Source of the DNA: a virus
Lineage: Duplodnaviria > Heunggongvirae > Uroviricota > Caudoviricetes
Length of the DNA: 16,408 nucleotides
Strand: one strand, 5' to 3'
IMG/VR virus record: IMGVR_UViG_2617271072_000010
Location: 1-16,408 of that record
Part shown: positions 1-15,688 of the stretch, piece after piece
Numbering within the stretch: the stretch's first letter is position 1
How the letters are laid out: each line of letters starts with the position of its first letter
Notes under the pieces: model-generated
What the model was told of the DNA's origin: nothing
Seen by the model: only the letters and a program-made list of their open reading frames with translations
The model's database searches: none
Made by a program: the position numbers and the translations under genes

Positions 1-13
1 TATGGACACAGGC

Positions 14-880
14 CTAAGCGAGGTTCTTGTTTTCAAATTGTTCCGGACTGAGGCCGCCACACCAACTGTGCCGCCGCCACCGATTGTAATCACATTCGAT
101 ATAATTAAACACCGTTGCCCGCATTATTTCCCGGCTGATAAAGTGTTCTCCATGGATACATTCCACTTTCAGCGAATGAAAGAAGCTTTCCACGCAGGCA
201 TTATCGTAGCAGCAACCTTTTGCGCTCATACTTCCACGCAGATTATGCCGCTTCAGTTGCGCCTGATAATCTGCTGAACAGTACTGGCCTCCACGGTCCG
301 TGTGAACGATAACGTTCCGGGGCCTCTTACGCCGCCACAGCGCCATCTGCAGGGCATCGCAGGCCAGTTGCGCCGTCATGCGTGGCGACATTGACCAGCC
401 AATAACGGCACGTGACCACAGGTCAATGACCACTGCCAGATACAGCCAGCCTTCATCTGTACGTAAGTACGTGATGTCTCCTGCCCACTTCTGGTTCGGG
501 CCACTGGCGTAAAAATCCTGCTCCAACAGATTTTCTGACACAGGCAGGCCGTGTGCGCGGTAGCTGACCGGGCTGAACTTCCGGGAGGCCTTTGCCCTCA
601 GTCCCTGACGGCGCAGGCTTGCCGCCACGGTTTTTACGTTAAAGGGGTAACCCTGAGCACGCAGTTCATCCGTCAGGCGTGGGGCACCGTAACGCTGTTT
701 TGACCGGGTAAAAGCCGCGAGGACAACGCTGTCGCAGTGTTGGCGGAACTGCTGACGCGTGCTTATCCTTGTCCGCCGCTGACACCACGTATACCAGCCG
801 CTGCGGGCCACCCGGAGCACGCGGCACATTGCTTTGATGCTGAACTCAGCCTGATGTTTTTCAATAAAGACATACTTCAT
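14..880 (-). CDS. insF: IS3 transposase OrfB (InsF), DDE integrase-type catalytic domain, 288 aa
   Basis: Translation [36 protein letters not shown]... is recognised as IS3 InsF; overlaps the upstream orfA by 4 nt as expected for the IS3 frameshift arrangement. Confidence 0.92.
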
Positions 881-1176
881 TTCAGGCGCTTCGCGAAGTA
901 TGTCGCGGCCTTTTGGAGGATAGCCAGCTCTTCATCCCGTTCTGCCAGCTGGCGTTTGAGACGTGCAATCTCGGTAGACATCTCCAGTTCACGTTCAGAA
1001 GACGTCTGCTGATTTTGCTGTTTACTGCGCCAGTTGTAGAGTTGTGATTCATACAGGCTGAGTTCACGGGCTGCGGCAGTAACACCGATGCGTTCAGCAA
1101 GCTTCAGGGCTTCACTGCGAAATTCAGGCGAATGCTGTTTACGGGGTTTTTTACTGGTTGATACTGTTTTTGTCAT
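877..1176 (-). CDS. insE: IS3 transposase OrfA (InsE), HTH/leucine-zipper part, 99 aa
   Basis: Translation [50 protein letters not shown]... from the ATG at 1176, preceded by GAGGTGA; the ORF track starts three codons earlier at 1185. Confidence 0.9.
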
Positions 1177-1245
1177 GTGAGTCACCTCTGACTGAGAGTT
1201 TACTCACTTAGCCGCGTGTCCACTATTGCTGGGTAAGATCAACCT

Positions 1246-1800
1246 TTATTCGGTGAGTGCTTTGGTTAATCCGAGAAGTGGGATCTGTCCTTGCTTTTCG
1301 AGTCTCTCAATCTTCGCAAGTAGGACGGGCTTCTTCACCCTACCCCAACGATTCAGAAGACGGCCTGACATACTGGCCACATCCTTCTCCTTCATGAACT
1401 CCAGCATTACTGCATTTCGTTCTTCTTCAAACTGACGCCAGCCAACTTGAAGCATCGCGTACATCCAATTGAAAGCATTGATGTAAGCAATTTTGATCCG
1501 CATGGCTTCTTTCTTGGTGTAAGACATGACAAGAAGCATCAATCCATCCTTGCGGAGTCGGTAGAATTTCTGCGGTTTTCCATTCTGTAACTCATTGTTT
1601 CTATAGCAAAGCTCAAAGTTGAGCTTTGTATCAAACTCTGGTGGGCAAGCGTCTATGGTCCGTTCAATATCGCGAACTACGTTTTTCGACAGCTTACCGA
1701 ATGCTTTCGCCACCATAAACGAATCGGTAACCGGATCGTTGTTTGCTACAAAAATCAGGTCTCGGAAATCGATGCCGTTAACAACTGTTGGGTAGTTCAT
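1246..1800 (-). CDS. Rha-family phage regulatory (antirepressor-like) protein, 184 aa
   Basis: N-terminal segment ...PVTDSFMVAKAFGKLSKNVVRDIERTI... resembles the Phage_pRha domain. The stop codon lies 5 bp outside the IS3 terminus, so the ORF is not truncated by the IS. Confidence 0.6.
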   Translation of the reverse strand: MNYPTVVNGIDFRDLIFVANNDPVTDSFMVAKAFGKLSKNVVRDIERTIDACPPEFDTKLNFELCYRNNELQNGKPQKFYRLRKDGLMLLVMSYTKKEAMRIKIAYINAFNWMYAMLQVGWRQFEEERNAVMLEFMKEKDVASMSGRLLNRWGRVKKPVLLAKIERLEKQGQIPLLGLTKALTE

Positions 1801-1951
1801 AGCGTATACCTTACTTTGAGATGAACCTTTGCCGCATAGGAGATCAGCCCGTCGAGGCTCGCCAGCACTAACTAACTCCTCAAAGGCTCATTCCAAAAGG
1901 TTGGGTTCGACGTGATTGAATGCGCTGCGGTGCGCGGTGAAATGCAGATAC

Positions 1952-1978
1952 AAAAAAGCCCCGGTATTAAACCGAGGC
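1952..1978 (-). terminator. Rho-independent terminator candidate downstream of the lysis cassette
   Basis: Minus-strand hairpin GCCTCGG-TTTAATA-CCGGGGC (7-bp stem with one G-U) followed by TTTTTT. Confidence 0.4.
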
Positions 1979-2085
1979 TTATAATTCTTTCTCTTTTTCA
2001 GAGAATGCGGATTAATGAACGTGCTTCATTGCTGGTTTCATCACAGCTTGGCACATATTTACTACTTTCATTTCTCATTTTCAAT

Positions 2086-2301
2086 TTATTTTTTTGCACA
2101 GTTAGCCTGCACTGATTTATTGTGCACCAATATGTCCCGCTTCGTCTGCTTATCCAGCACGGCAATATCGTGTTCAGTGAGGTAGATAATGTCCACCCAG
2201 TCACAGGCTGTGTCCGTTAATTCAGGTTTTGCGGGTAAAGTTTTCGCGCAACTCACGGTCAACATCGTCATCAGGAAGATGATTAACAGTCTGCTGTACA
2301 C
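2086..2301 (-). CDS. Putative o-spanin-like lipoprotein (Rz1-like), 71 aa
   Basis: Signal peptide with a Cys at position 18 (MYSRLLIIFLMTMLTVSC); overlaps the 3' end of the preceding membrane-protein gene by 80 bp in another frame, the overlapped spanin arrangement. Not proline-rich, so only tentative. Confidence 0.4.
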   Translation of the reverse strand: MYSRLLIIFLMTMLTVSCAKTLPAKPELTDTACDWVDIIYLTEHDIAVLDKQTKRDILVHNKSVQANCAKK

Positions 2302-2491
2302 CCCTGGCTCCTTTTGTTGTCTCTACCCGGCGTTCAGCCACTGCTTCAGTGGCAGCGGCCTTTTCTTCGGTGCGTTGCTGGTTGGCTTTCGCTTCGGCTT
2401 TGCTGGTGCCGCGCGAATGGCCTAATCCAAATGCGGCGGCTATAGCAGCTAAAACAGCTGCAAGGAGTCCGATAATCATCTCAAGCGTCAT
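2222..2491 (-). CDS. Putative i-spanin-like protein (Rz-like), 89 aa
   Basis: One N-terminal transmembrane helix (IIGLLAAVLAAIAAAFGL) then a charged, Ala/Glu-rich tail; start overlaps the endolysin stop (ATGA). Shorter than typical Rz. Confidence 0.4.
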   Translation of the reverse strand: MTLEMIIGLLAAVLAAIAAAFGLGHSRGTSKAEAKANQQRTEEKAAATEAVAERRVETTKGARGVQQTVNHLPDDDVDRELRENFTRKT

Positions 2492-3030
2492 ATAACCACC
2501 CGCTCCTTTACCCAGCCATAAACAAACGTCTCGTTCGCGCTGCGCTGTTCTGCCAGTTCAAGATAACGTTGACCCTGGCTGCAATTCAGAGCCCGGAGCA
2601 TTACCAGCTCTCCTTCTTTCCCGCGTCGAGATAGGTAACTTTTTAGCGCACTAACAGTTCGCGGACCTATAAAACCATCCGCAATCAGTTCGGGATAGAG
2701 CGTGCCCTGAATGTTGAACACGTTCAGCCAGCGCTGAAACCACTTGGTCTGAACCGATGGCCCCATGTTTACGCCCGTGTCGCAGAGTTCAGCGGCGATG
2801 GCTGGTGACACCTCAGAAATAAGGTCGAATCGCGGGCCTGTCCAGTAGTCAGCCGTCAGAATATCCAGCGCCTGCTGGCGGGTGAGATCGCGCATATCTC
2901 CTACATACCCATGTGCCCGCGCCGTTGCCTGAGTGATACCCCAATTCGTTGGGCCGCCTTTATCGTCGGGATGGTTAACATAGCCGCCCTCTTTGCCAAG
3001 GATGGCATTGAAGATATCGTCTTTAGTCAT
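2488..3030 (-). CDS. Phage endolysin, glycoside hydrolase family 108 N-domain with a C-terminal peptidoglycan-binding domain, 180 aa
   Basis: N-terminal ...ILGKEGGYVNHPDDKGGPTNWGITQATA... matches the GH108 signature; C-terminal half resembles PG_binding_3. Start shares one nucleotide with the upstream stop (TAATG). Confidence 0.85.
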   Translation of the reverse strand: MTKDDIFNAILGKEGGYVNHPDDKGGPTNWGITQATARAHGYVGDMRDLTRQQALDILTADYWTGPRFDLISEVSPAIAAELCDTGVNMGPSVQTKWFQRWLNVFNIQGTLYPELIADGFIGPRTVSALKSYLSRRGKEGELVMLRALNCSQGQRYLELAEQRSANETFVYGWVKERVVI

Positions 3031-3311
3031 TAGTGCCTCAGATGATCAACCAGCCGCGCTACGTTGCCTCTGACGGCGACAAGCACAGACAGGAAAATAA
3101 TGTTGGCCCCGATAGTGGCCCAAGATGAATAAGGGTAGATACCGCACAGATACGCCAGCGGTACGGCGCTATAAATGACCGTAAGCAGCCAAGCTAAGCG
3201 AGATATCCACGGTCGATGTCGCGAATCGCCGCGACGGTAAAACATCAGGGTCAGCACTACCCCAGCGCAGAGTAACGCATTGATAGTTGCCGATGGGTCA
3301 TTTAGTACCAC
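3030..3311 (-). CDS. Holin-like small membrane protein (second holin or antiholin candidate), 93 aa
   Basis: Strongly hydrophobic with predicted transmembrane helices; sits immediately upstream of and coupled to the endolysin. Confidence 0.5.
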   Translation of the reverse strand: MVLNDPSATINALLCAGVVLTLMFYRRGDSRHRPWISRLAWLLTVIYSAVPLAYLCGIYPYSSWATIGANIIFLSVLVAVRGNVARLVDHLRH

Positions 3312-3684
3312 CTGAACCTCCCCGGCGCGTTATCAGCGCCACCAGCGAGCCAACATCCTGATTATTCAGGAACGTCAGGATTTTGACGGCTAAAGCAGAA
3401 ACGATTACGGCACCAATGGCATCCAGTGGTTTATCACTGTAGCCAGTAACCTGAGCCAGCTTTGAACCCACCAGCCCGGAACAAAGGATCCCCGCAATAT
3501 ACGACACCAGAAAATATGCCAGACGGCGCGCTGCACTCAGGTCCGCTGTGGTGGCAATGTAAAATACAGCCCCGGCAAACGCGCCAAAGACCACGCCGTA
3601 ATCGGTTCCGGACAGAAATCCATAGACGCTGGCCCCCGTCAGGACACCACCAGCCAGCCCAGTACCGGAAATCGGATCGGACAT
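3298..3684 (-). CDS. Holin-like membrane protein, 128 aa
   Basis: Gly/Ala-rich hydrophobic segments predicting about three transmembrane helices; first gene of the lysis cassette; RBS AGAGGGGG upstream of the ATG. Confidence 0.5.
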   Translation of the reverse strand: MSDPISGTGLAGGVLTGASVYGFLSGTDYGVVFGAFAGAVFYIATTADLSAARRLAYFLVSYIAGILCSGLVGSKLAQVTGYSDKPLDAIGAVIVSALAVKILTFLNNQDVGSLVALITRRGGSGGTK

Positions 3685-3731
3685 TTAGCCCCCTCTTAAT
3701 TGCTGTGAATCCTCTCAGGAATGAGGGGAAT

Positions 3732-3753
3732 AAAAAAGGCCGCATAAGCGACC
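3732..3753 (-). terminator. Rho-independent terminator candidate just upstream of the holin (tR'-like position)
   Basis: Minus-strand hairpin GGTCGC-TTAT-GCGGCC followed by TTTTTT; a second imperfect hairpin (3711-3728) follows. Confidence 0.4.
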
Positions 3754-3776
3754 TCGACATTTGGATGTTAGTTTTT

Positions 3777-3998
3777 TTATATCCAGTGGCTCATCAATTC
3801 CGGCTGTACCTTTTGAAGCACTTCTTGCGGTGATGGGGCTTCAATAATTTCTGAGAATACACATCCCCTATCATTGAGTCTATGCTTAAACCTTGCCATT
3901 TTAGCGCTATCTCTATCAAGATACTCTTCTGAAACAACAAGATGCTTCTCAACTTCCAAACCTTCTTCTTTATGCTGGTAAACGTAATAAAACCCCAT
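3777..3998 (-). CDS. Hypothetical small acidic protein, about 73 aa from the internal ATG
   Basis: The ORF track starts at 4013, but the second ATG (3998) has a good RBS (AAGGAG, 5-nt spacer). No family recognised. GC intermediate. Confidence 0.35.
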   Translation of the reverse strand: MGFYYVYQHKEEGLEVEKHLVVSEEYLDRDSAKMARFKHRLNDRGCVFSEIIEAPSPQEVLQKVQPELMSHWI

Positions 3999-4045
3999 GG
4001 AGTCTCCTTTCATTTAGGTGCCTGTTATGAATACCACCATAAAGC

Positions 4046-4067
4046 AAAAAACCCCGCCAAAGCGAGG
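4046..4067 (-). terminator. Rho-independent terminator candidate downstream of the nuclease-like cargo gene
   Basis: Minus-strand hairpin CCTCGC-TTTG-GCGGGG (one G-U) followed by TTTTTT. Confidence 0.45.
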
Positions 4068-4222
4068 TTTAAAATCTTTTAAGTACGTGTCCAAGTGACC
4101 AATCTTAACACAGTACAACAAGATTTGCGGACCGCGCTAGGGATTTCTTATTCTTTTTTACCAGATTAGATGCAGCTCGACATCTATAAAGAATCATTAT
4201 TATATTCAATCTTTAAATAAGT

Positions 4223-5072
4223 TCATAGTTGAACCCTAGCACTTCCACCATTTTGAACTGGTGAAATATAATCGGAGAACTCAGGATATAAGGAAATTTT
4301 ACCAGAGGTTAACATAAACATAAATGTACCGAAAAACTTCATGTGGAAATATTCATCATCTTTTGGAGTCAAGAAGCAACTTTTAAAGTTTTGCTGGCGA
4401 AGCATCGGGAATGGAAGTTTCACTCCATCCGGGGCTGAATAGGCAAGAAGCCCATCTTCGATACTAAGGATTAGGTTATGCCTATGCCTAAATTGTATTT
4501 CATCAGAGTAAAGATTATCTAGTTCATTTTCTATATTGCTTATATCAAAATCAAGCTTCTTACAGATCAATATGCTAGAATAAACATGAAAAGGGTTGTT
4601 TTCCGGATCAAAGTTAAAACTGCTAGAGTTAAAACTTAATGAAGGGTTTTTTATTCTCTCGGCGATTGCTTTATTTTTCGCCAGTTTGTTAATGGCGTCT
4701 CGAAAAGCAGCGCGAGATAAATTTGACTTAACCTCACCAATGCAGTAAACAGATTCAATTGGGAAAAACCTATGTTTATCTCCACCTTGAAAAAGTGGTG
4801 TCATTTTAGAATCAAAAATAACAACATCACACTGCGTGCTAATGTCATCCATCGCGGACATTAAAAAACCATTAGATATAGCAAGTCGCTGAGGAACTAT
4901 AAAGTTCAAAAAATCCCTTACTACCGACTCACGATATATTCCATATTCACCAGCATGAATAAGACGATTGTTTTCAGGATCATAAAAAACTTCAGTTGAA
5001 GTTGCGGAAAAAGAATTTTTTAAAAATATCTATTTTCTCACGGTATAGTGCATCAAATATCCTATTTGACAT
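4223..5072 (-). pseudogene. Low-GC cargo gene with a PD-(D/E)xK-like nuclease motif, family unassigned; split by a +1 frame change in a T5-A6-T5 run (reconstructed product about 283 aa)
   Basis: ATG at 5072 has a strong RBS (AGGAGG) and opens a 27-codon frame ending at 4992. The main frame (4223-4909, TTG start in the ORF track) is open back to 5029; one base fewer in the TTTTT/AAAAAA run near 5005-5020 joins them. Motif: ...CDVVIFD...(22 aa)...PIESVYCIGEVKSN (D then E-x-K). Confidence 0.45.
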
Positions 5073-5093
5073 ATTACCCTCCTGTATATATGA

Positions 5094-5129
5094 ATACCCA
5101 TGATACAAATATAGTCTCATCATGGGTAT
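5094..5129. promoter_or_regulatory. Perfect 11-bp inverted repeat (ATACCCATGAT-N14-ATCATGGGTAT) between Q and the cargo gene
   Basis: Read directly from the sequence; no adjacent T-run on either strand, so not an intrinsic terminator. This is where pR'/qut would be expected. Confidence 0.3.
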
Positions 5130-5146
5130 ACACTTCAGAGCATAAA

Positions 5147-5521
5147 TTAACTTATCTCAACATCCATATCTAGTGTTATGTCTAGCATAGAAAGGCAACC
5201 ATCGATGAACCCTTCAGCCATCTGCATTTCAATACGTATCAATTTCTCATCTTTTTTGCGAGCTCTTGCAAGCTTTCTTTTCGAGATGCCATACAGGTAA
5301 TGGGCCACAATCAAAGAATGCTCGTACGGTTTTCGCTTTTTAAGAAGAGCAAGACAACCTTCAATAATTAATGCATCACTATCTGAACAAGCCTGACGTG
5401 TTTTGCTTGTATAGGGAAGAAGCCCTTTAAACCCAGCAGCTATAGGAGAATAGTCTACTCCTGAACTATCACTCGCCGCCCATGCTCCCCAACGATCCAG
5501 AACCATTTGAATATCACGCAT
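5147..5521 (-). CDS. Late-gene antiterminator Q (DLP12 QuuD / Qin QuuQ type), about 124 aa
   Basis: MRDIQMVLDRWGAWAA...AAGFKGLL... resembles the Q antiterminators of E. coli lambdoid prophages as I recall them. ATG at 5521 has GGAG 7 nt upstream; the ORF track starts at a TTG at 5536. Confidence 0.8.
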   Translation of the reverse strand: MRDIQMVLDRWGAWAASDSSGVDYSPIAAGFKGLLPYTSKTRQACSDSDALIIEGCLALLKKRKPYEHSLIVAHYLYGISKRKLARARKKDEKLIRIEMQMAEGFIDGCLSMLDITLDMDVEIS

Positions 5522-5538
5522 CAACTTTCTCCACAAAA

Positions 5539-6534
5539 TCAGGCCAGCACGCCAATTGCCAGCGCACGATCGATAAAACGAAATATCAGCTCCAGCTGGG
5601 AGCCATACCTCTCTTCAAATGCCACGGTATCCGCATGCAGCTCGTCGTGATGCTTTCTGCACAAAGGCAACACAAAAAGGTCATGCGCTTTTGTACCCAT
5701 TCCACACTGACCGTGGCCTATCAGGTGGTGGGGATCATCAGCGGGCTTTCCACAACATGCACACGGCTGTGTCTTAACCCAGCGCGTGTACTTTTCATTA
5801 ACCCAGCGGCGACGTTTTGGGCGTAACATAAAAGACTCCGGCGACTCCGGATCCACTTTCAGCGCCAGCACCTTTTTCGCTTTATCCTGGATGATGCTGG
5901 TGGCAGGAATCGAAGGCACAAGGTCACTTTCCCGGGTGACAGACGGCACAACAGGCTTCGGTAATCTCAGTGCCTTACGGGCTGCACTTTCCGGTAAGGC
6001 ATCCGCCAGTTCATTACGAATCAGCCACCAGCACAGTTCCGGCATTGTCACAACGTGACTATCATCAAAACCGAGATCACGGCGCACAACAGATAACACC
6101 CAGCGGGCACAGTTATCCGTTGCCATTGATTCCAGCCGTTCCGTGAACTGATCGCGCAGCTGGTTATCGCAGTGCCAGCACAGACGGATTGCGCCCGGAG
6201 CGTGTCGCATTGTGGTCATGTTCTCGCTGTGCCAGTTGGAATGAGGCCACTGACAGCCCTTTTCACGAAGTAACCAGCTTTCAAGACATTCCACGCCACC
6301 AGCACGACGGATCACTGCCTCATTGCGGAACACGGCCCGAACGGCAGGATCATCCGCCAGCGGTTGTGATGCTGCCGGAACGGCACCACTGGCGAAAGAT
6401 GAATAACGTTCCGGCTCAGGCTCCAGCAGGACACGCCCCTGCATAAACAGGGGCATCAACTCTGAACCTGGTCTGAACAATACGATCCCCATACGCGGGG
6501 CAATTTCAGGGGTCAGTAGTGCTCTCACGGTCAC
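5539..6534 (-). CDS. DUF968-family prophage protein (YdfU-like), 331 aa
   Basis: Cys/His-rich C-terminal region (CACCGKPADDPHHLIGHG...LCRKHHDELH), the usual neighbour of Q in Qin-type prophages. Confidence 0.65.
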   Translation of the reverse strand: MTVRALLTPEIAPRMGIVLFRPGSELMPLFMQGRVLLEPEPERYSSFASGAVPAASQPLADDPAVRAVFRNEAVIRRAGGVECLESWLLREKGCQWPHSNWHSENMTTMRHAPGAIRLCWHCDNQLRDQFTERLESMATDNCARWVLSVVRRDLGFDDSHVVTMPELCWWLIRNELADALPESAARKALRLPKPVVPSVTRESDLVPSIPATSIIQDKAKKVLALKVDPESPESFMLRPKRRRWVNEKYTRWVKTQPCACCGKPADDPHHLIGHGQCGMGTKAHDLFVLPLCRKHHDELHADTVAFEERYGSQLELIFRFIDRALAIGVLA

Positions 6535-6558
6535 CTCAATGAACGGTATCGAGCAGCT

Positions 6559-7332
6559 TTAACAGCTCAGGGATCGGGATTCGAAGAAATGCGGCTGCGT
6601 CTCGCGCGGATTTGCGGGACTGGTGATGTTCTTGCCGAACATGCAACCTTTCGCTGTCAGCGACCAGAATTTTTTGATGTTGTTAATCGCGGTACGGCTG
6701 TATCGTTCGCGCTGCTCGACGATCCCCAGCTTCACCATCTGGTGATATGCCTGATTAGCCGTCAGGCGGATACCATACTGTTTCAGCAGTGCACTCAGTG
6801 ACAGTGTCGGGCGACTTGAGCCATCGTGTGCATCAGCAGGAGCATCAATGGCATAGCGCGGTGCCAGATTCGGTAAGCCAACAGCCTCCTGAAGTTTCTG
6901 ACAGGCTCCAAGCACTGAAGAGTTAGACAGATTTAACTCCCGGCGCATAAAGTCCAGCAGAATCACGCCAGCCTGCATCTTGTCAGCAGCCTGTCCGGAT
7001 AATTTTTCAGGTGCACTGGTTACCATGTCGAAAGTACGGATCACCTTCAGATGGAATGACGGGCTGATCCACATTGCATAGGCATACACCAGTTCTTTGC
7101 AGACATACGTCCCCTGGTTATTTCCGCCACGAATAACGTTAACTGGCTCTATATTGACCGAGTTGCAAATCTGCAACTCGCTTATTAAACGTTCAGTTTG
7201 CTCATTGCGGAGCCAGAATGCAGGCTTATGCTTATCCAGAGAACCGGCAGCCCTGTGCAGATCGTTCAGGCTGTAACGCCCATAAGCATCACGACGAACT
7301 TCAATACCATCAATGACCATCAGATTATTCAT
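6559..7332 (-). CDS. KilA-N plus KilAC (ANT) domain protein, antirepressor-like, about 257 aa
   Basis: MNNLMVIDGIEVRRDAYGRYSLNDLHRAAG...KPAFWLRNEQTERLISEL resembles the KilA-N domain; C-terminal half resembles KilAC. Start set at the ATG at 7332 (RBS AGGAG); the ORF track starts at 7365. Confidence 0.6.
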   Translation of the reverse strand: MNNLMVIDGIEVRRDAYGRYSLNDLHRAAGSLDKHKPAFWLRNEQTERLISELQICNSVNIEPVNVIRGGNNQGTYVCKELVYAYAMWISPSFHLKVIRTFDMVTSAPEKLSGQAADKMQAGVILLDFMRRELNLSNSSVLGACQKLQEAVGLPNLAPRYAIDAPADAHDGSSRPTLSLSALLKQYGIRLTANQAYHQMVKLGIVEQRERYSRTAINNIKKFWSLTAKGCMFGKNITSPANPRETQPHFFESRSLSC

Positions 7333-7351
7333 ACTTCGTTTCTCCTCTTGA

Positions 7352-7741
7352 TCAGGCGGCTGCACCCGCCGTTTTCTCGTACTTACTGATAGTGATCTCG
7401 ACCTTCCCTTCCGGGATAACCGGTCCCCACTCCACCAGCATTCTTTTCACCTGACTGTCGTCTTCCCACACACCCGCGTGGGTCAGGGCGTCAAACAGCG
7501 CCTTGTTATAGTTGTCCAGATCGCGGATCCGGTTATCCGGAGGAAACAACACGATCTCCACTGAAGCTGGTGCCGACGTTGGTTTCGGCAGACGGCGTAA
7601 CTGCTCAATGATGGCGGCACACGCCGCGCCCTGGAATTTACGCCCCGCCGCGCTTATCAGGCTCTTACCTGCAAAAGCCCCTTTGTTGGGGTGTCGCCAG
7701 TACGTGTTCACGCTGGGGGGAAACGGCAGGATCAGCTTCAT
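7352..7741 (-). CDS. rusA: RusA-family Holliday junction resolvase, 129 aa
   Basis: LPFPPSVNTYWRH... and ...RDLDNYNKALFDALTHAGVWEDDSQV match the RusA signature. Confidence 0.8.
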   Translation of the reverse strand: MKLILPFPPSVNTYWRHPNKGAFAGKSLISAAGRKFQGAACAAIIEQLRRLPKPTSAPASVEIVLFPPDNRIRDLDNYNKALFDALTHAGVWEDDSQVKRMLVEWGPVIPEGKVEITISKYEKTAGAAA

Positions 7742-8064
7742 ACTTTCAGCCCCCTCTCATGTAACCAGTGGGCTGCACGCAGCCTGGCGTTTTCCTCACC
7801 GGCAAGCAGTGCGCGGATAATCCCGACCACCTCGCTGTCGTCGTCCTTCACCGCGGTATGAAGAGTTATCCCCCGGGCCACGCCACGCTTTATCGTGATG
7901 ACGCCTTTTTTCTCCAGTGCGCGAAGATGCTCCACCGCTGCATTCACCGAACGGTATCCCAGCATGGTTGCCACCTCCTGATTGGTTGGCGGAAAGCCAC
8001 GTTCTTGCTGGTAAGAAATCAGCATATCCAGCACCTGCTGCTGTCATTGAGTTAACGTCGTCAT
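7738..8064 (-). pseudogene. LexA N-terminal DNA-binding-domain protein (no peptidase domain) with an in-frame TGA at codon 7
   Basis: Frame from the ATG at 8064 (coupled to the upstream stop as TAATG) reads MTTLTQ-stop-QQQVLDMLISYQQERGFPPTNQEVATMLGYRSVNAAVEHLRALEKKGVITIKRGVARGITL, parallel to E. coli LexA [68 protein letters not shown]. The TGA (8044-8046) sits where LexA has Arg. Reinitiation at GTG 8034 or ATG 8025 could still give a 95-98 aa product. Confidence 0.55.
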
Positions 8065-8558
8065 TAAGCCCCCACGTAATTCCCTGAAAGATACCATTCA
8101 TCACCCGATACAGCGCGCTTGCTGCTTTTCCGTAAGCACAGCTCACGACGCGCCAGAAAGTTGTTTCGTTCTGGCTGGGAGTGACTTTCACGGAATGCCA
8201 CCATCCACACCGTTGCAGCACGACGGTATAACCCCCTCGACTCCAGTTCTTCAGCCTGGCGGGTCAGGCATAAAATCACCCGGGGATCGTTAGTGCCGAC
8301 ATAGAAATTGCGCACAGGTCTGGTTTCTCGAACTGGTTGTGGTTCCGGTTCCTGCGCTCTCTCAGTCAGGCGCGGGAAATGTCTGCGTGTATCTCCTTCA
8401 CAACGGTGAGCCACACGCCCACTCTGACGTAACTTGCTTGCTGACTGCAGAACGCGCTGCCGTGAGTAACCAGCAAAAGCATCCGCAATGTCTCCGGAAG
8501 TACACCCCGGATGGGCTTCAATGAATTTCTGAACGTCATTTAACAGACTCATGATCAC
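8064..8558 (-). CDS. Hypothetical regulator with a PerC-like C-terminal region, 164 aa
   Basis: C-terminal ...AEELESRGLYRRAATVWMVAF... resembles the PerC/Pch family motif from memory; N-terminal half looks like a small winged-helix domain. Tentative. Confidence 0.4.
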   Translation of the reverse strand: MIMSLLNDVQKFIEAHPGCTSGDIADAFAGYSRQRVLQSASKLRQSGRVAHRCEGDTRRHFPRLTERAQEPEPQPVRETRPVRNFYVGTNDPRVILCLTRQAEELESRGLYRRAATVWMVAFRESHSQPERNNFLARRELCLRKSSKRAVSGDEWYLSGNYVGA

Positions 8559-9496
8559 CCCCTGAATCCTGCCGGGATCTGGCTGTAGTCCACGTTGTCG
8601 TAACTGGCTTTGAAGTACGGGTCTTCACGTTTTTCTGTGTGCGTGCTGACGGACGGCGATAAGCGCAGGGAAAGCTCATCCCATTTTTCCCGCAACTTCG
8701 ACGGGCTGAGCACGTTACGGCACCAGAACGGATCGCGGCTGACGCGGCTGTACATCTCGCAGATTTGTTTGTGAGTACGACCATCCTGCACACACATCAG
8801 GCGAATTTCGTTTGCCCAGGCTGTCCAGTTAGGTTCTTTGGGACGAACCACCTCGCCGTCACATTCGGCGGCCTGCTCGTACAGGGCGATGATTTTTTCC
8901 AGAGCCACTGTGCGCAGGTCAAATCATCCTGCGTTCCCCACTGGCGCTTTTTAGGGCTGAATACAACCGCATCAGGATGGCGAGTTAAAAACTCCTGTTC
9001 AGCCGTCTGCGTGTCCGGTTGCGAAGCGTCCGGACGAGAAGTTTTTTTTATCTGACGGATCATGTTTTGATTTTACTGACGGATCCCCGCCAGATTCTGA
9101 CGGGTGAAAACCCGCTTTTTTGCCAGATTTCGACGCATCAAATTTTGACGGGGCAGATTTTGATGCGTCAGATTTTGACGGGTCAGAATCTGACAGTTGA
9201 GAAAATGCCGCTGCCTGAAGCTTCGCAACGTTAAGCTGATAAACATTCGACGCATTACGGTTACCCTGGCGACGCGCCTTACGCGTTAACCAGCCTTCTG
9301 CTTCCAGCCGTGCGATAGCCGTTCTGACGGTACTCATCCCCGCGCCAATCTGACGGGCAATGGTTTCAATTGATGGCCAGCACACACCTTCGTCATTACT
9401 GAAATCAGCCAGGCGGGCCATAATTGCCACGCTGGATAACTTCATGCCTGATGCAGCGCAACCATCCCATACATAGCCGGTTAATTTAGTGCTCAT
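8555..9496 (-). pseudogene. Phage replication initiator (N-terminal winged-helix domain, iteron-encoded linker, DnaT-like C-terminal domain) split over three frames
   Basis: Fragments 8999-9496, 8797-9063 and 8555-8908. The N-terminus (...LADFSNDEGVCWPSIETIARQIGAGMSTVRTAIARLEAEGWL...) is replication-initiator-like; the C-terminus ends ...YSQIPAGFRG, as E. coli DnaT does (...SQIPPGFRG). One base fewer in the A8 run (9042-9049) and one more in the A6 run (8893-8898) give a single ORF of about 313 aa. Confidence 0.6.
9049..9199. repeat. Iteron-like tandem repeats (consensus CAGATTTTGACGG), probable phage origin inside the initiator gene
   Basis: Five contiguous copies with 14-16 bp period at 9124-9199 plus three more degenerate copies upstream (9051, 9073, 9091), flanked by a T8/A8 run at 9042-9049. 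They encode the SKSD/SKSA-rich linker. Confidence 0.6.
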
Positions 9497-9844
9497 GACC
9501 GACCTCTATTTCCCTGAATTTACGACGAAACTGTTCGAGCGGACTGAAGCATTCATGCTCATAACCTTCGCGGAGGTAGATAACCCGTTGTGTTTCCGGC
9601 TCCCAACGAATGACTCTGACGGGCACTCCGTAGTGATCTTTGAACCAGCGGTTAACTTGTCGCAAAGGACTGTCTCCTTCTGCCGGTTGAAATCACCCAC
9701 AGCCCACTCTGCAAAGCTGTGGGTTACAATTTCCCTGTCACCTGGTACATTCACTGCATAGCAATATTCCACCTTCGCTTTTCCACCCGGTACAGGAAGC
9801 GCAATCAGTTGCGAGCGACGGTAGTGTGTTGTTAAACTGTTCAT
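9487..9844 (-). CDS. Hypothetical early protein; coding signal changes frame near 9690 (one broken gene or two overlapping small genes)
   Basis: The frame from the ATG at 9844 is protein-like for about 63 codons, then becomes Ser-rich and low-complexity; another frame reads ...[56 protein letters not shown] and ends overlapping the initiator start. Confidence 0.3.
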
Positions 9845-9913
9845 GCGTTAGTTTCTCCACAACCAGAAGCAATCGACGCCACGACGCCCGGAGCTGCACA
9901 CTCGCGGGCGTCA

Positions 9914-10411
9914 TTACTTTCTGAAATGCAAAAAATTTTTGTAGACAAGTGCTGCATGCTCCTGCAGCTTCGAAATTGAGAGATACAGCTCGTCGTTAAT
10001 TGCTGTCTTCTCATGCGGTTCCACTACACCGTCTTCGATTGCTGAACGAATCTGTTTTGAATAACTGCCGATCTGTTCAATGACTTCCAGCAGACGCTGG
10101 TTAATATCGGCGTTGTCCACATCCTCGACGTCAGGAAGAGACACAAAGACGCCATTTGCAGACTGCGCCACAGCATCAGCAATGAAGTGAGTGCCACCAG
10201 CACGCTGTAAAACCATTGCCCATCCCAGCGGGAAAATCTGATCGCCATCTGCACGAAGGCGGTTGAATAAAGCGTTTTCTGTTACATCGAGCCAGTCAGC
10301 CGCTTCAGCGTAACCACCCGGCAACGCCGCGATAGTTTTTCTGACAGCTTTCACGTACCACTCAGGCTGTTTTTCTATTTTCCAGTGATGCTTACCCACG
10401 ATTAGCCTCAT
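9914..10411 (-). CDS. CII-like phage regulatory protein (CP76/YdaT-like), 165 aa
   Basis: Sits in the cII position after cro; segment ...GYAEAADWLDVTENALFNRLRADGDQIFPLGWAMVLQRAGG... parallels the lambda CII HTH region. Family name recalled, not searched. Confidence 0.5.
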   Translation of the reverse strand: MRLIVGKHHWKIEKQPEWYVKAVRKTIAALPGGYAEAADWLDVTENALFNRLRADGDQIFPLGWAMVLQRAGGTHFIADAVAQSANGVFVSLPDVEDVDNADINQRLLEVIEQIGSYSKQIRSAIEDGVVEPHEKTAINDELYLSISKLQEHAALVYKNFLHFRK

Positions 10412-10502
10412 CGTTCTGTGGTTAAAAATTGAAAGTGTTCTGCTAATCTTTCGGATAGATATCCGGTCTTAAGTCAGATTTCGTAATTGCACCTGACGTG
10501 CA

Positions 10503-10643
10503 TTACTCAAGTTTTTTAGCCAGCACAAAACTGGCTTTTTTATAGCCATTGAAAACCAGCCGTAAGTAGCCAGGTGTTGAGCCAACTTTTCCGGCCAACT
10601 CGCCCTGCTGTTCTTTGGTTAAAGAGTCCCAATACGCTTTCAT
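10503..10643 (-). CDS. Cro-like small HTH protein, 46 aa
   Basis: MKAYWDSLTKEQQGELAGKVGSTPGYLRLVFNGYKKASFVLAKKLE; ATG at 10643 preceded by GGAGG; divergent from the repressor across the operator region. The ORF track extends it to 10982, antisense to cI, which is unlikely to be real. Confidence 0.5.
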   Translation of the reverse strand: MKAYWDSLTKEQQGELAGKVGSTPGYLRLVFNGYKKASFVLAKKLE

Positions 10644-10733
10644 ACAATATGTACCTCCGGTGTACATATTACATGATTGAAATGAACCTTCAAGATACTT
10701 GTACCTTAACGGTACAAGGGTTTTAATTTCGTT
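10644..10733. promoter_or_regulatory. Immunity-region operator/promoter segment with two palindromic operators and divergent promoters
   Basis: O1 ATATGTAC-N7-GTACATAT (10647-10669) and O2 CTTGTACC-N5-GGTACAAG (10698-10718), both perfect. Minus-strand promoter TTGAAG-N16-TAATAT (10688-10693, 10666-10671) overlaps O1. No Shine-Dalgarno before the repressor ATG. Confidence 0.5.
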
Positions 10734-11406
10734 ATGAAAACAATCCATGACATCCGGCGGTCTAACGCCAGAAAACTGAGAGATGGTGTTGGCGGGAATT
10801 CTTCCTTTGCCACTATGATTGATCGCGAGCCAACCCAGACCAGCAGGTTTATGGGAGATGGTGCTACTAAAAATATCGGTGACAGCATGGCACGACACAT
10901 CGAAAAATGTTTCGACCTGCCTGTCGGATGGCTCGATCAAGAACACCAGACAACGAACATCACAAAAAACCTGATGTTTCAATCACTAATAAACAAATCA
11001 CATTAGTCCCTGTCATATCATGGTACAGGCCGGAGCATGGAAAGAAGTTGGATATTCTGAGGTTGATTTGAGCACAGCAGAAACGTATCCCTGCCCTGTA
11101 CCCTGTGGGGAAATGACTTATATCTTGCGGGTGATAGGTGATTCAATGATTGATGAGTACCGCCCGGGAGACATGATTTTTGTCGATCCTGAAGTACCTG
11201 CCTGCCACGGTGACGACGTTATTGCATTGATGCACGATACAGGTGAAACCACCTTCAAAAGGTTGATAGAAGATGGGACACAGCGTTATCTCAAAGCGTT
11301 AAACCCAAACTGGCCTGAGCCTTACATTAAGATCAACGGTAATTGCTCTATAATTGGTACAGTGATTTTCTCAGGAAAACCAAGAAGATACAAAATCAAA
11401 GCCTAA
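10734..11406 (+). pseudogene. CI-like repressor (HTH domain plus S24 LexA-like peptidase domain) split over three frames
   Basis: 10734-11006 encodes the HTH domain (...IGDSMARHIEKCFDLPVGWLDQE...); 11020-11406 encodes the S24 domain (MVQAGAWKEV...RVIGDSM...TTFKRL). A third frame between them reads ...KQITLVPVISW. One extra A in the A6 run (10964-10969) and one extra base near 11021 would give an intact repressor of about 222 aa. Confidence 0.7.
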
Positions 11407-11418
11407 TCAATGTTTATG

Positions 11419-11441
11419 AACCTGCTTCGGCAGGTTTTTTT
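11419..11441 (+). terminator. Rho-independent terminator after the repressor gene
   Basis: ACCTGC-TTCG-GCAGGT perfect 6-bp stem followed by T6-T7, 13 bp after the stop codon. Confidence 0.6.
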
Positions 11442-11445
11442 ATAC

Positions 11446-11478
11446 TTGACAATGTACCTTTGAGATACATAATGTACC
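11446..11478 (+). promoter_or_regulatory. pL-like promoter candidate with operator-like motifs
   Basis: TTGACA (11446-11451), 16-bp spacer, CATAAT (11468-11473). ATGTACC occurs twice and TACAT-a-ATGTA forms a palindrome (11466-11476), the same TGTAC core as the operators at 10647-10718. Confidence 0.35.
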
Positions 11479-11558
11479 CAAGCGAAACAACGAACAGGCA
11501 GGACGCCCACGAAGTAGCCGCCTGGGGCATATGAAGTCCAGGATGATTCGTTAGCAAC

Positions 11559-11580
11559 AAAAAAGCGCCCTATAGGACGC
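11559..11580 (-). terminator. Terminator-like hairpin downstream of the minus-strand membrane-protein gene
   Basis: Minus strand GCGTCC-TATA-GGGCGC (one G-U) followed by TTTTTT; 234 bp from the gene end, so the assignment is weak. Confidence 0.3.
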
Positions 11581-11813
11581 TTCGCTCTTTAACAATCTGG
11601 AGATCCCCAACACTTAACGGGATTTTGGCTTCGGTTCTGGCGGTGAAGGACGAGGTTTTAAGGGTATATGATCCTCTTTCCATGTATATATAAATGCATT
11701 CATTTGGTCATCTCAATATAGAATCCATTATTAATTCATACTCATAAAGCCTGTGTGACTTTGGTGATGGTGGTCTGGGCTTTGGAGGTACATGGTTAGG
11801 GATTATGGGAATT

Positions 11814-12293
11814 CTATTTGTCATTATTACACCTTTTTGACCGAGGCAAATCTCCAGCAAACCATGCGATAACGCTATGCATGAATGATATTTCTGACTC
11901 ATCAACACGTCCCAGCGCAATACAGGTCCGTTTGAACGCAGCATCTTGTAAAGATCTCCATGGATTACTATCAGCGTCTTGAACCTTTAAAAACCGAGTG
12001 CGTAGTTCGTCATCAGAAAGGGAGGAAAACTCAACAATCAACCTTTTATACTGTCGCATCTGTTCCTTTGATAAGCCAGCTTCCTGCCCAAATTGGTATA
12101 CCAATTGAAGCACCGACAAAATAGCTACAGATGCGCCAAAAATAAACATATTGCTATATGGCGCAAAAACAGAAAAGCCCAAGACAATGAGAACAAGAGT
12201 TATGCTCTTGTCTATCCGATTTAAAAGGGTGTAATTCATTTTCTCAAGAAAGAAAGAATAATGAATATCGAATGCTAGATCGTCTCGAGTCAT
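11814..12293 (-). CDS. Low-GC membrane protein (two predicted TM helices, soluble C-terminal domain), 159 aa; superinfection-exclusion-type moron candidate
   Basis: ATG at 12293 with RBS AAGGGA; hydrophobic segments ITLVLIVLGFSVFAPY and FIFGASVAILSVLQLVYQF; opposite strand to the surrounding operon, adjacent to the immunity region. No family recognised. Confidence 0.5.
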   Translation of the reverse strand: MTRDDLAFDIHYSFFLEKMNYTLLNRIDKSITLVLIVLGFSVFAPYSNMFIFGASVAILSVLQLVYQFGQEAGLSKEQMRQYKRLIVEFSSLSDDELRTRFLKVQDADSNPWRSLQDAAFKRTCIALGRVDESEISFMHSVIAWFAGDLPRSKRCNNDK

Positions 12294-12399
12294 CTCTATT
12301 CCCTTACATTTCAGGTTTCGGCTCAGGGATCGGTGCTGGTCTCTGATTTACCGGAACATGAAATTTTTCATTGCTATCTACGTACATATTTCCTTCCTA

Positions 12400-12449
12400 C
12401 CTGTTGTTGGGATATCCAGATTATACCGAATCCTTGTTGTTGGGGAATA
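12400..12449. repeat. Two direct repeats CC(T)TGTTGTTGGG(G)A about 32 bp apart in a non-coding stretch
   Basis: Copies at 12400-12414 and 12432-12449, read directly from the sequence; function unknown. Confidence 0.3.
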
Positions 12450-12673
12450 ACCAGGTCCACCTCGCCTGATGTGGCTAAAAGCAGGCACATAACAGCTAAG
12501 TATTTTCAACCAGAGAGAATCCTTAGCGTTGTGGTGAATGCGGCTCAGCGCACGCGGGTTAAGGTTGAGGCTGACAGTCGACCTTCTGTGGATACCCACC
12601 CGTCTGGTGTACAACCTTCGCCAGGCACCGGGAGGCACCCGGCACCACAACTTTATGCTGTGTGTTGTCTTGG

Positions 12674-12718
12674 CGGTACCAGCTTGTACCCTTGCTTCCG
12701 GCTGGTACCGTCCTTTTT
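12674..12718 (+). other. 10-bp perfect stem (CGGTACCAGC / GCTGGTACCG) with a 17-nt loop, followed by T5; possible 3' end of a plus-strand RNA
   Basis: Read directly from the sequence; lies inside the GC-rich 12300-12900 stretch where every overlapping ORF translates to low-complexity sequence. Confidence 0.3.
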
Positions 12719-12930
12719 ACAAAACAGAGAAGAGCATCATCGGACGACGGGCTCATAACCCAATCCATCCGGGCGGCTGCCACCACAGGTGTTCTTCTCT
12801 GTTTTGTGGAGAAACTAACCGCCCTACGGGGGCATTTATGGAAATGTAATTGACTCAATAATCGCCGGACGGTGAGGGCTTCCTTTTACCCGAATTCAGC
12901 GCGGTGCAGCGCATATACGTGGAGAACAAA

Positions 12931-13437
12931 ATGTCATTTATTAAAACTTTTTCCGGGAAGCATTTTTATTATGACAGGATAAATAAAGACGACATCGTTA
13001 TTAACGATATCGCGGTTTCCCTTTCAAATATCTGTCGCTTTGCAGGACATCTTTCACACTTCTACAGCGTCGCCCAACATGCGGTGCTTTGCAGCCAGCT
13101 GGTACCGCAGGAATTTGCTTTTGAAGCGTTAATGCATGATGCAACAGAAGCGTATTGCCAGGACATCCCGGCTCCACTGAAACGCCTTCTTCCTGACTAT
13201 AAACGGATGGAAGAAAAAATAGACGCCGTAATCCGTGAAAAATACGGGTTACCCCCGGTTATGAGCACGCCTGTGAAATATGCCGATCTCATCATGCTGG
13301 CAACCGAACGCCGCGATCTCGGGCTTGATGATGGCTCTTTCTGGCCTGTACTGGAAGGCATCCCGGCAACAGAGATGTTCAACGTGATTCCACTGGCACC
13401 GGGCCAGGCCTACGGGATGTTTATGGAACGTTTTTAA
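12931..13437 (+). CDS. HD-domain phosphohydrolase (YfdR-like), about 168 aa
   Basis: H...HD motif (RFAGHLSHFYSVAQHAVL...ALMHDATEAYCQDIP); start set at the ATG at 12931 (GGAG 7 nt upstream) rather than the ORF-track start at 12904. YfdR resemblance is from memory. Confidence 0.7.
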   Translation: MSFIKTFSGKHFYYDRINKDDIVINDIAVSLSNICRFAGHLSHFYSVAQHAVLCSQLVPQEFAFEALMHDATEAYCQDIPAPLKRLLPDYKRMEEKIDAVIREKYGLPPVMSTPVKYADLIMLATERRDLGLDDGSFWPVLEGIPATEMFNVIPLAPGQAYGMFMERF

Positions 13438-13458
13438 CGAGTTATCGGAGTTACGCAA

Positions 13459-13821
13459 ATGCGCATGAATGTTTTCGAAATGGAAGGGTTTCTTCGCGGG
13501 AAATGTGTACCGCGAGATCTGAAAGTGAACGAAACAAATGCTGAGTACCTAGTACGTAAATTCAACGCGCTTGAAGCTAAATGTGCGGCACTGGAAAACA
13601 AAATAATACCAGTGTCAGCTGAACTGCCACCAGCAAATGAAAGTGTTCTGTTATTTGATGCTAGTGGAGAAGGCTGGCTGATTGGCTGGCGTTCTCTCTG
13701 GTACACATGGGGGCAAAAAGAAACCGGAGAATGGCAGTGGACATTTCAGGTCGGGGACCTTGAAAACGTCAATATCACTCACTGGGCAGTAATGCCGAAA
13801 GCACCGGAGACTAAGAAATGA
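13459..13821 (+). CDS. DUF551-domain prophage protein (YfdS-like), 120 aa
   Basis: C-terminal ...GEWQWTFQVGDLENVNITHWAVMPKAPE matches the DUF551 signature common in enterobacterial prophage early regions. Confidence 0.6.
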   Translation: MRMNVFEMEGFLRGKCVPRDLKVNETNAEYLVRKFNALEAKCAALENKIIPVSAELPPANESVLLFDASGEGWLIGWRSLWYTWGQKETGEWQWTFQVGDLENVNITHWAVMPKAPETKK

Positions 13822-14033
13822 GCGTGATAAAAACTCATACAGGAATTGTTATCACCCGAGACGGTGAAAAGCGGATGAAATTACATTCCACTGAAACGTC
13901 CTGGGTTGCCGGACGTTGTGAATCCTACGACAAAAAGACTGGTTACCGTTGGGGGGCGCCAAACATGCGTCGCCGTCTGATCCTGGACAGCATCAGGCCA
14001 ATAAAACAGGTAGCAACCAGAGAACAAAATTAA
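13818..14033 (+). CDS. Hypothetical small protein, 71 aa
   Basis: ORF coupled to the upstream gene (start overlaps the upstream stop by 4 nt); no family recognised. Confidence 0.35.
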   Translation: MSVIKTHTGIVITRDGEKRMKLHSTETSWVAGRCESYDKKTGYRWGAPNMRRRLILDSIRPIKQVATREQN

Positions 14034-14094
14034 TTATCAGGACTGGAATTTGATATTACTGCCCGAGTGCAGCGGGCTAAGTGGAGAAACAGCC

Positions 14095-14304
14095 ATGGCA
14101 AAACTAATGAAAGCGAGCCAATGGGGACGCCGTGAATTCTCTAATGGCTCAATTCCTGACAACCGAACGATAAAACGTTGGGTCGAGAACGGTCTACTCA
14201 TGGGACGCATCGTGGACGGTTCTGTTTTTGTCTGCGAAACAGAAAAATGGGGAGTCGACTCAATGGTTAGTCAAGCTGTTCGCAAGTTAATAAACGAGGG
14301 GTGA
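14095..14304 (+). CDS. xis: Excisionase (lambda Xis-like), about 69 aa
   Basis: ...QWGRREFSNGSIPDNRTIKRWVENGLLMGRIVDGSVFVCETE... parallels lambda Xis (...WNARQRRPRSLETVRRWVRECRIF...); start set at the ATG at 14095 (GGAG upstream); immediately precedes the integrase. Confidence 0.6.
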   Translation: MAKLMKASQWGRREFSNGSIPDNRTIKRWVENGLLMGRIVDGSVFVCETEKWGVDSMVSQAVRKLINEG

Positions 14305-15489: not shown

Positions 15490-15688
15490 AATTGCATTAA
15501 TTCAGATTTTATCCTTGCATTGCTATGGTACAGACCTAAACAAGCATGTGCCAAAAACAGGCTATTGTAGGGATACTCACATCTTTCAGGTATTATATTT
15601 TGCATAACCGAAAGTGAGGCAACAAACAGAAATGCCATGCTTTTAAACGCGATACTTCACAATAAGAGTTAAGGTAAAAGGAGCGATA

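Follow-up and report, generated by a model that had tools for sequence, protein, structure and literature searches.

A predicted NucC-like DUF6602 endonuclease as candidate single-gene anti-phage cargo of a lambdoid Escherichia coli prophage

This study analysed a stretch of 16,408 nucleotides (hereafter the window; positions 1 to 16,408 of the IMG/VR virus record IMGVR_UViG_2617271072_000010), which is a lambdoid, SfV/SfII/SfIV-like Escherichia coli prophage, and focused on one minus-strand gene at positions 4223 to 5072. The product is a predicted PD-(D/E)xK DNA endonuclease that resembles NucC and belongs to the Pfam family DUF6602. Our preferred explanation, to which we give a probability of roughly 55%, is that it is a stand-alone NucC-like nuclease, carried as prophage cargo, with a single-gene anti-phage role and with a trigger other than the NucC-type binding of cyclic tri-adenylate (cA3). 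The gene and the sites within and before it are as follows.

4223..5072, minus strand: DUF6602 / NucC-like nuclease gene with a length of 850 nt in the window; the eight near-identical copies have 849 nt (282 aa, WP_053286213.1).
5077..5083, minus strand: Shine-Dalgarno sequence AGGAGGG, found by sequence inspection and separated by 4 nt from the start codon ATG (5072-5070).
5016..5021, minus strand: frame-breaking homopolymer, A6 on the coding strand and A5 in all eight comparators.
4826..4828, minus strand: codon of the predicted catalytic D82 (NucC D73), placed by HMMER alignments to NucC and invariant in 59 homologues.
4727..4735, minus strand: codons of E113-V114-K115 (NucC E104-A-K106), placed by HMMER alignments to NucC and by the 59-homologue alignment.

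The gene starts with ATG at 5072-5070 and stops with TGA at 4225-4223. An earlier note on this DNA, made by reading the letters, had described a strong ribosome-binding site and an open frame broken inside a T/A homopolymer, and both descriptions agree with our data: AGGAGGG precedes the ATG by 4 nt, and the ATG frame (frame 1) stops after 26 codons, with the long frame resuming in frame 2. The break lies within ATTTTT-AAAAAA-TTCTTTTT, in which A6 corresponds to window positions 5021-5016, at about codon 18. Deletion of one A from the window gene yields exactly the protein WP_053286213.1, whose intact length is 282 aa and not the approximately 283 aa estimated before. In a megablast search of complete E. 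coli genomes, the same 4-kb stretch occurred in seven chromosomes at 99.2-100% identity, each time with A5, and an IMG/VR prophage contig 99.93% identical to the window locus likewise has A5. These A5 copies are intact coding sequences of 849 nt, with the RefSeq name 'DUF6602 domain-containing protein' and a P160S variant in one strain.

The gene is more than a chance open reading frame (ORF), since it has 237 full-length homologues, 47 synonymous against 36 non-synonymous codon changes relative to its Citrobacter orthologue, and invariant motif residues. The comparison of synonymous and non-synonymous changes with the Citrobacter copy indicates purifying selection.

The frameshift itself had been presented as a feature of the gene, and it is most likely a homopolymer error of the assembly. 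Just five or six positions over approximately 9-10 kb distinguish the window from its two closest relatives, and four of these are one-base length changes in T/A homopolymers (5016-5021, 8892, 9042 and 9936). The window is the outlier at all four, and each change disrupts a gene that the relatives carry intact. Since four homopolymer indels against one substitution among near-identical copies is the signature of miscalls, unlike that of decay, the frameshift is probably an artefact, and therefore the actual gene is likely intact. A decaying pseudogene, in which the A6 insertion is real in the source genome and the nuclease gene is dead, would fit the broken frame of the window as given and a prophage that holds IS3 elements and a KilA-N frameshift common to two other genomes; with A5 in eight of eight near-identical copies and the miscall signature just described, we regard this as decidedly improbable. 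The source assembly of the window appears to be error-prone at homopolymers. A helix-turn-helix gene of 942 nt in the replication region (8555-9496) shows as three ORFs in the window through the changes at 8892 and 9042, and ymfL (9841-10411) is split, with the homopolymer change at 9936. The KilA-N frameshift is a one-base deletion at 6572 that is common to strains MINF_2E and 2196.

NucC is the cA3-activated endonuclease effector of type III anti-phage signalling systems based on cyclic oligonucleotides (CBASS) and of some type III CRISPR-Cas systems, with structures available as PDB entries 6P7O, 6P7P, 6Q1H, 6UXF and 7ZGV. It is the suicide nuclease of CBASS and a textbook case of a restriction-type nuclease under the control of a second messenger: the homotrimer associates into a hexamer on cA3 binding and then cleaves double-stranded DNA.

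Several searches linked the protein encoded in the window to NucC. Pfam PF20247 (DUF6602) matched residues 35-133 with 77.8 bits (cut-off 27; E-value 6.8e-22), and the PADLOC profiles that matched were those of the Cas-associated PD-DExK nuclease (2e-30), NucC (6.3e-19, over residues 36-198) and the NucC effector (4.5e-18). Sequence searches of the PDB returned NucC chains only (Serratia, Vibrio metoecus, E. coli MS115-1 and P. aeruginosa), with E-values down to 1e-10 for the single sequence and 5e-17 for the family profile. The profile-profile alignment by hhalign against five true NucC sequences covered 171 columns (residues 34-214) with a probability of 98% and an E-value of 2e-13. The protein had been said to fit no known family; with DUF6602 at 77.8 bits, the PADLOC NucC profile at 6e-19 and PDB NucC chains at 1e-10, that statement does not stand, and RefSeq already uses the DUF6602 name. 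NCBIfam holds no family for the protein, and PHROGs gave only a weak match to an unannotated family.

The catalytic motif of NucC is ID-x30-EAK, formed by D73, E104 and K106 (10.1101/694703), and its counterpart here is CD-x30-EVK. The HMMER alignment to NucC is ungapped across the core, so that NucC residue n corresponds to residue n+9 of the nuclease, and D82, E113 and K115 are invariant in an alignment of 59 sequences that share 41-87% identity with the query. The predicted protein thus carries the catalytic D...(D/E)xK triad on a restriction-endonuclease-like core that defines the PD-(D/E)xK superfamily. The spacing of 22 residues between D and E proposed previously is corrected to D82-x30-E113-V-K115 (25 residues if counted from D87).

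An AlphaFold2 model was made from the Citrobacter orthologue, which is 88% identical to the window protein, and reached a predicted local distance difference test score (pLDDT) of 85.4 and a predicted template modelling score (pTM) of 0.87. All 14 significant Foldseek matches of this model in the PDB were NucC, and therefore the whole chain, beyond the 130-residue core, is predicted to have the NucC fold; the nearest structural neighbours other than NucC were type II restriction enzymes. The assignment as a PD-(D/E)xK nuclease made in the earlier note is thereby upheld, as the checks that it had itself proposed, on structure and conservation, found the nuclease core fold in the model and the motif residues invariant among homologues. 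The Asn/Ser-rich C-terminal domain of about 150 aa that it had described is not supported, because Asn and Ser together make up 19% of residues 136-282, close to their share of 16% in the N-terminal half. Only the loop at 140-160, which is both the least conserved stretch and the one modelled with the lowest confidence, is rich in these residues (48%), and the supposed domain is predicted to form the second half of the NucC-like fold. The loop region 140-164 is variable, has a pLDDT of 56-75 and sits where NucC has its gate loop.

The protein shares with NucC the same catalytic motif spacing (x30) and the whole-chain predicted fold, including embellishments past the core, whereas only 130-170 residues align with type II restriction endonucleases of the NgoMIV/SgrAI/Bse634I/Kpn2I/BbvCI group, which are missing the extra elements common to the nuclease and NucC. 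It differs from NucC in being about 40 residues longer, in a sequence similarity limited to residues 33-137 (HMMER) or 34-214 (profile-profile), and in a gate-loop region that is variable and modelled at low confidence. The genomic setting also differs: true NucC adjoins a CD-NTase/HORMA/TRIP13, E1/JAB or Cas10 locus, whereas the lone nuclease is found without such a neighbour. Plasmid-borne true NucC directly follows either a CBASS cyclase accompanied by Cap7 and Cap6 or a set of E1/JAB genes. The RefSeq label 'DUF6602' is also borne by true CBASS NucC of the plasmid loci L106-L109, which show 46-70% identity with the NucC of E. coli MS115-1 over a 105-residue query; the NucC of L106 directly follows a CBASS cyclase, and that of L108 follows E1/JAB genes.

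The distribution of the family was examined by HMMER over 1.84 billion cluster representatives. The number of matching clusters was 294 at E<=1e-30 and rose to 2118 at E<=1e-10 and to 6624 at E<=1e-3; the 294 clusters (50% identity) were taken as roughly the full-length family. Gene context was studied in 80 loci from contigs chosen as one genome per species, including Proteobacteria, Bacteroidota, Firmicutes, Cyanobacteria, Poribacteria and others, and neighbours were tested in 79 loci by BLAST clustering of all ORFs within 4 kb, together with ten Pfam-annotated contexts. No neighbour was shared across the 79 loci: the largest cluster, of integrases, occurred in six, followed by IS3 transposases and AlbA_2-type regulators. 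The contexts comprised a Citrobacter prophage with the same Q-gene arrangement and slot, an island of Burkholderia that also carries a KAP NTPase and SymE, a gene standing by itself in Pseudomonas, and an Acinetobacter HipA island and Tn7-like cargo. In Aliivibrio fischeri the homologue (48% identity, gene at 8001-8876) is part of a chromosomal integron array among TacAT, GNAT and other small cassettes, and it adjoins the integron integrase IntI in two strains. These data demonstrate that the family is small and spread over many bacterial phyla, with its members standing alone in mobile or variable surroundings.

The proposal of a single-gene module is in line with these observations, since no conserved neighbour occurred in the 79 loci and no homologues of the cyclase, Cap6 or Cap7 were found. 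The tblastn searches with CdnC, Cap7 and Cap6, which have BLAST-level sensitivity only, gave no matches in the window or in approximately 90 context loci, and neither a cyclase nor Cas10 was present in the Pfam-annotated contexts. The earlier note had left a choice between a defence and a toxin module; the defence part is plausible from the genomic contexts and from a published DUF6602 cassette (discussed below), whereas a toxin-antitoxin module is disfavoured, as no small antitoxin gene adjoining the nuclease gene was co-conserved in the 79 loci, and the 78-aa ORF downstream of it in the window is replaced by a methyltransferase in Citrobacter. This Citrobacter gene, an N6/N4 methyltransferase, bears on the idea of a sequence-specific restriction endonuclease or toxin whose host is guarded by an unlinked methyltransferase or antitoxin, an idea that also draws on the type II restriction enzymes as nearest structural neighbours after NucC. 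However, the nuclease lacks a cognate methyltransferase, unlike type II restriction systems, with no conserved adjoining methyltransferase in the 79 loci, and the Citrobacter methyltransferase is also present in prophages without the nuclease. We consider this explanation highly improbable.

Concerning the activation of NucC, the contacts with cA3 are made by R53, Y81 and T226, together with the main chain of V227, and the gate loop is latched by H136 and Y141; mutation of any contact or latch residue abolishes activation (10.1101/694703). The five true NucC sequences all have R53, Y81 and T226, whereas R53 and Y81 are not kept in the lone nuclease family: among the 59 homologues, position 62 (R53 in NucC) is variable (S in 18, R in 14 and G in 12, otherwise A, N or T), and position 90 (Y81 in NucC) is M in 34 and otherwise L, S, I, N or V, never aromatic. 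The T91-P92 pair adjoining the Y81 equivalent is invariant. Arg or Lys stands at position 61 or 62 in 40 of the 59 homologues, and the profile-profile alignment ends at NucC residue 206, short of T226. The C-terminal half has an invariant set of its own that is specific to the family, namely R195-H196-[KR]-H198-N199, S203, D206-G207, Y211, P236, H243, Y262-P263 and Y268.

These data bear on the possibility of an orphan second-messenger effector, that is, a NucC still gated by a cyclic oligonucleotide and responding in trans to signals that come from a CBASS or type III CRISPR system at another place in the host, or that arise during infection. The predicted whole-chain fold, the frequent basic residue at 61 or 62, the invariant T91-P92 and the unaligned T226-equivalent region, which leaves part of the pocket possible, would suit such an effector. 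Against it are the replacement of both contact residues that true NucC keeps invariant, the lack of a cyclase within 8-10 kb in approximately 90 loci, and the occurrence of the family as single integron cassettes and cargo in many phyla, and we judge it quite unlikely.

The surroundings of the gene in the prophage indicate how it may be carried and expressed. The features of this region are as follows.

3730..5527, region without assigned strand: low-GC replaceable module (Q, nuclease gene, promoter block with terminator, and 78-aa ORF) that differs from most related E. coli prophages.
5147..5524, minus strand: antiterminator Q gene (PF06530), directly upstream of the nuclease gene and paired with it in the Citrobacter prophage too.
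5094..5129, minus strand: palindrome ATACCCATGAT-N14-ATCATGGGTAT in the interval from the stop codon of Q to the ribosome-binding site, with perfect 11-bp arms at 5129-5119 and 5104-5094.
4080..4143, minus strand: conserved non-coding block, putative Q-dependent late promoter/qut, the function being suggested by position and conservation.
4040..4070, minus strand: intrinsic terminator, putatively tR'-type, with a 9-bp G+C-rich stem followed by a T-run, proposed for a short late-promoter transcript.
3777-4013, minus strand: 78-aa ORF with its own ribosome-binding site, between the terminator and the holin genes, with no Pfam or PADLOC family.
3755-3736: second terminator, after the 78-aa ORF.

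The module has a G+C content of 32-40%, against approximately 54% around it. As had been observed before, no helicase, ATPase or methyltransferase gene is adjacent; the neighbours are the antiterminator Q upstream and the 78-aa ORF and then the holins downstream. The Citrobacter prophage shares the stretch from 5853 to 4047 at 82% identity, comprising the end of a DUF968 gene, Q, the nuclease gene, the non-coding block and the terminator, after which the N6/N4 methyltransferase stands in place of the 78-aa ORF. The block at 4143-4080 is approximately 95% conserved between the window and Citrobacter, above the level of the coding sequence, with the intrinsic terminator after it at 4070-4049, and the same block was found in about 100 other E. 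coli genomes.

In strain ECO_2_R, the block begins 34 bp after Q and the slot is empty, whereas other prophages carry different genes between Q and the block: two opposite-strand cargo genes (313 and 149 aa) in strain AR435, and three in strain 94EC, one of which, of 293 aa, matches PDC-S42 (4e-27), a defence candidate in PADLOC. Since the same block directly follows Q in a prophage without cargo, the block and the terminator are read as a putative Q-dependent late promoter/qut region with a tR'-type terminator. Based on this comparison, the space between Q and the late promoter (region 4040-5146 of the window) appears to be a variable cargo slot, filled here by the nuclease gene. A stretch of 30 nt homologous to the terminator region is present after Q in the related locus L098. 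Phage SfIV, which shares Q, has unrelated DNA disrupted by an insertion sequence after Q and thus offers no empty-site comparison.

The nuclease gene lies 74 bp downstream of Q on the same strand. A sigma-70 scan found no promoter upstream of it on its strand, and a manual search of the 74-bp spacer for -35 and -10 elements was unconvincing. The palindrome in this spacer keeps its arms in Citrobacter, with the 14-nt loop diverged, and its RNA is predicted to fold with -24.1 kcal/mol (z -2.15); it may act as an RNA hairpin or processing site, as an operator or as a translational element. The predicted RNA fold at the palindrome also pairs an upstream CUCU with the GGAG of the Shine-Dalgarno sequence. 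The position of the gene, 74 bp past Q on the same strand and ahead of the late-promoter block, makes transcription together with Q from the early-right operon probable; the alternative is that the palindrome indicates a separate promoter or operator for the gene.

Some further observations were made around the module. Rfam searches over 3500-5700 gave chance-level matches only; one sub-threshold match, to STnc180 at 4040-4194 on the minus strand (21.5 bits, gathering threshold 50, E-value 0.23), is probably due to chance, yet it overlaps the expected short late-promoter transcript. At 14-1185, just past the Rha gene, the prophage is interrupted by a transposase of the IS3 family, encoded in two ORFs that overlap and are joined by a programmed frameshift; strain VTB97448v has phage genes in its place.

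The position after Q is the sole point that favours a benefit to the phage itself, namely a lytic-cycle nuclease made with Q after induction that degrades host or competitor DNA for prophage replication. Such a role would suit a gene that lacks a recognisable promoter and stands upstream of the putative late promoter, and Q and the nuclease gene occur together in both E. coli and Citrobacter. However, the gene is essentially absent from catalogued viruses: tblastn of 50,697 sequenced phage genomes gave no match, Foldseek against BFVD gave nothing significant, and just 13 loci were found among 2.9 million IMG/VR contigs. Most members of the family are not phage-borne but belong to integron cassettes, Tn7-like cargo and chromosomal islands, and the slot is replaceable and empty in related prophages. 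We regard a role of this kind as unlikely.

A precedent for the anti-phage function of a lone DUF6602 gene was reported by Darracq et al. (bioRxiv 10.1101/2024.07.02.601686), who described Damona, a single-gene anti-phage cassette in the chromosomal integron of Vibrio cholerae N16961. According to that report, the expression of Damona altered phage susceptibility and gave phage resistance, the protein was matched by the profiles of Cas PD-DExK and of the CBASS small endonuclease (NucC-type), and homologues were found in integron cassettes and in prophages, mainly those of Acinetobacter (10.1101/2024.07.02.601686). The present nuclease and Damona, compared by description only, are both one-gene DUF6602 proteins with the same pair of profile matches, and the present family also occurs in a Vibrionaceae integron array, that of A. 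fischeri with 48% identity. The Acinetobacter occurrences differ, since the homologues of Damona are mainly in prophages, whereas the Acinetobacter relatives of the present nuclease are in small islands and Tn7-like cargo.

Taken together, the fold, the active site and the lone occurrence of the gene favour the stand-alone NucC-like endonuclease with an anti-phage role stated at the outset. The contexts are of a defence type: the prophage slot, the island with the KAP NTPase and SymE, the integron array, the Tn7-like cargo, the HipA island, and PDC-S42 in the same slot elsewhere. The nuclease would work as a single-gene device of the abortive-infection type. Like NucC, it may be kept inactive as a lower oligomer until a trigger drives assembly, and the assembled enzyme would then cut double-stranded DNA largely without specificity in a Mg-dependent manner. 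The unconserved R53 and Y81 equivalents and the lack of a linked cyclase make it unlikely that the trigger is cA3 bound in the style of NucC. The invariant C-terminal set (R195-H-[KR]-H198-N199, S203, D206-G207, Y211, H243, Y262-P263 and Y268) is the best candidate for a regulatory surface. A further step, which we put forward only tentatively, is that the family is a widespread NucC paralogue that kept the catalytic core and the architecture, dropped the cyclase and the cA3 pocket, and combines sensing and killing in one protein of 282 residues gated by the invariant C-terminal motif; the gate of such an autonomous paralogue would respond to a phage-derived cue or to a different small molecule.

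Several points weigh against the stand-alone anti-phage explanation. A nucleotide-binding pocket may persist, because 40 of 59 homologues have Arg or Lys at 61 or 62 and the T226 region is unaligned. The location on the same strand after Q, with no promoter of its own found, suggests expression in the lytic rather than the lysogenic state, and this suits a phage-benefit role equally. The homologue searches, including those seeded with Vibrio hannami and Acinetobacter sequences, returned no named V. cholerae protein, and Damona, likened to the nuclease by description, may belong to another DUF6602 subfamily. Finally, the sparing of self-DNA is left without explanation.

Part of this picture is already known: RefSeq lists the protein with a DUF name, the domain is shared with a well-studied effector, and defence by a lone DUF6602 gene has been published. 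In the searchable literature, the full-length family has not been described as a distinct NucC paralogue without a cyclase and with altered ligand-contact residues, nor has the family been reported from a cargo slot between Q and the late promoter. For annotation, it follows from the RefSeq records that 'DUF6602' covers both true CBASS NucC and lone paralogues, and the frameshifts of the window should not be taken as biology.

Its carriage by prophages, integron cassettes and transposons makes the family a probable member of the minimal single-gene defences that are now being catalogued. A sister family that keeps the fold without the signal generator or the ligand contacts raises the question of what activates the lone nuclease and how self-DNA is spared. 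If the reading as an autonomous paralogue is true, the family would show a second-messenger effector evolving into an autonomous immune sensor, or the reverse.

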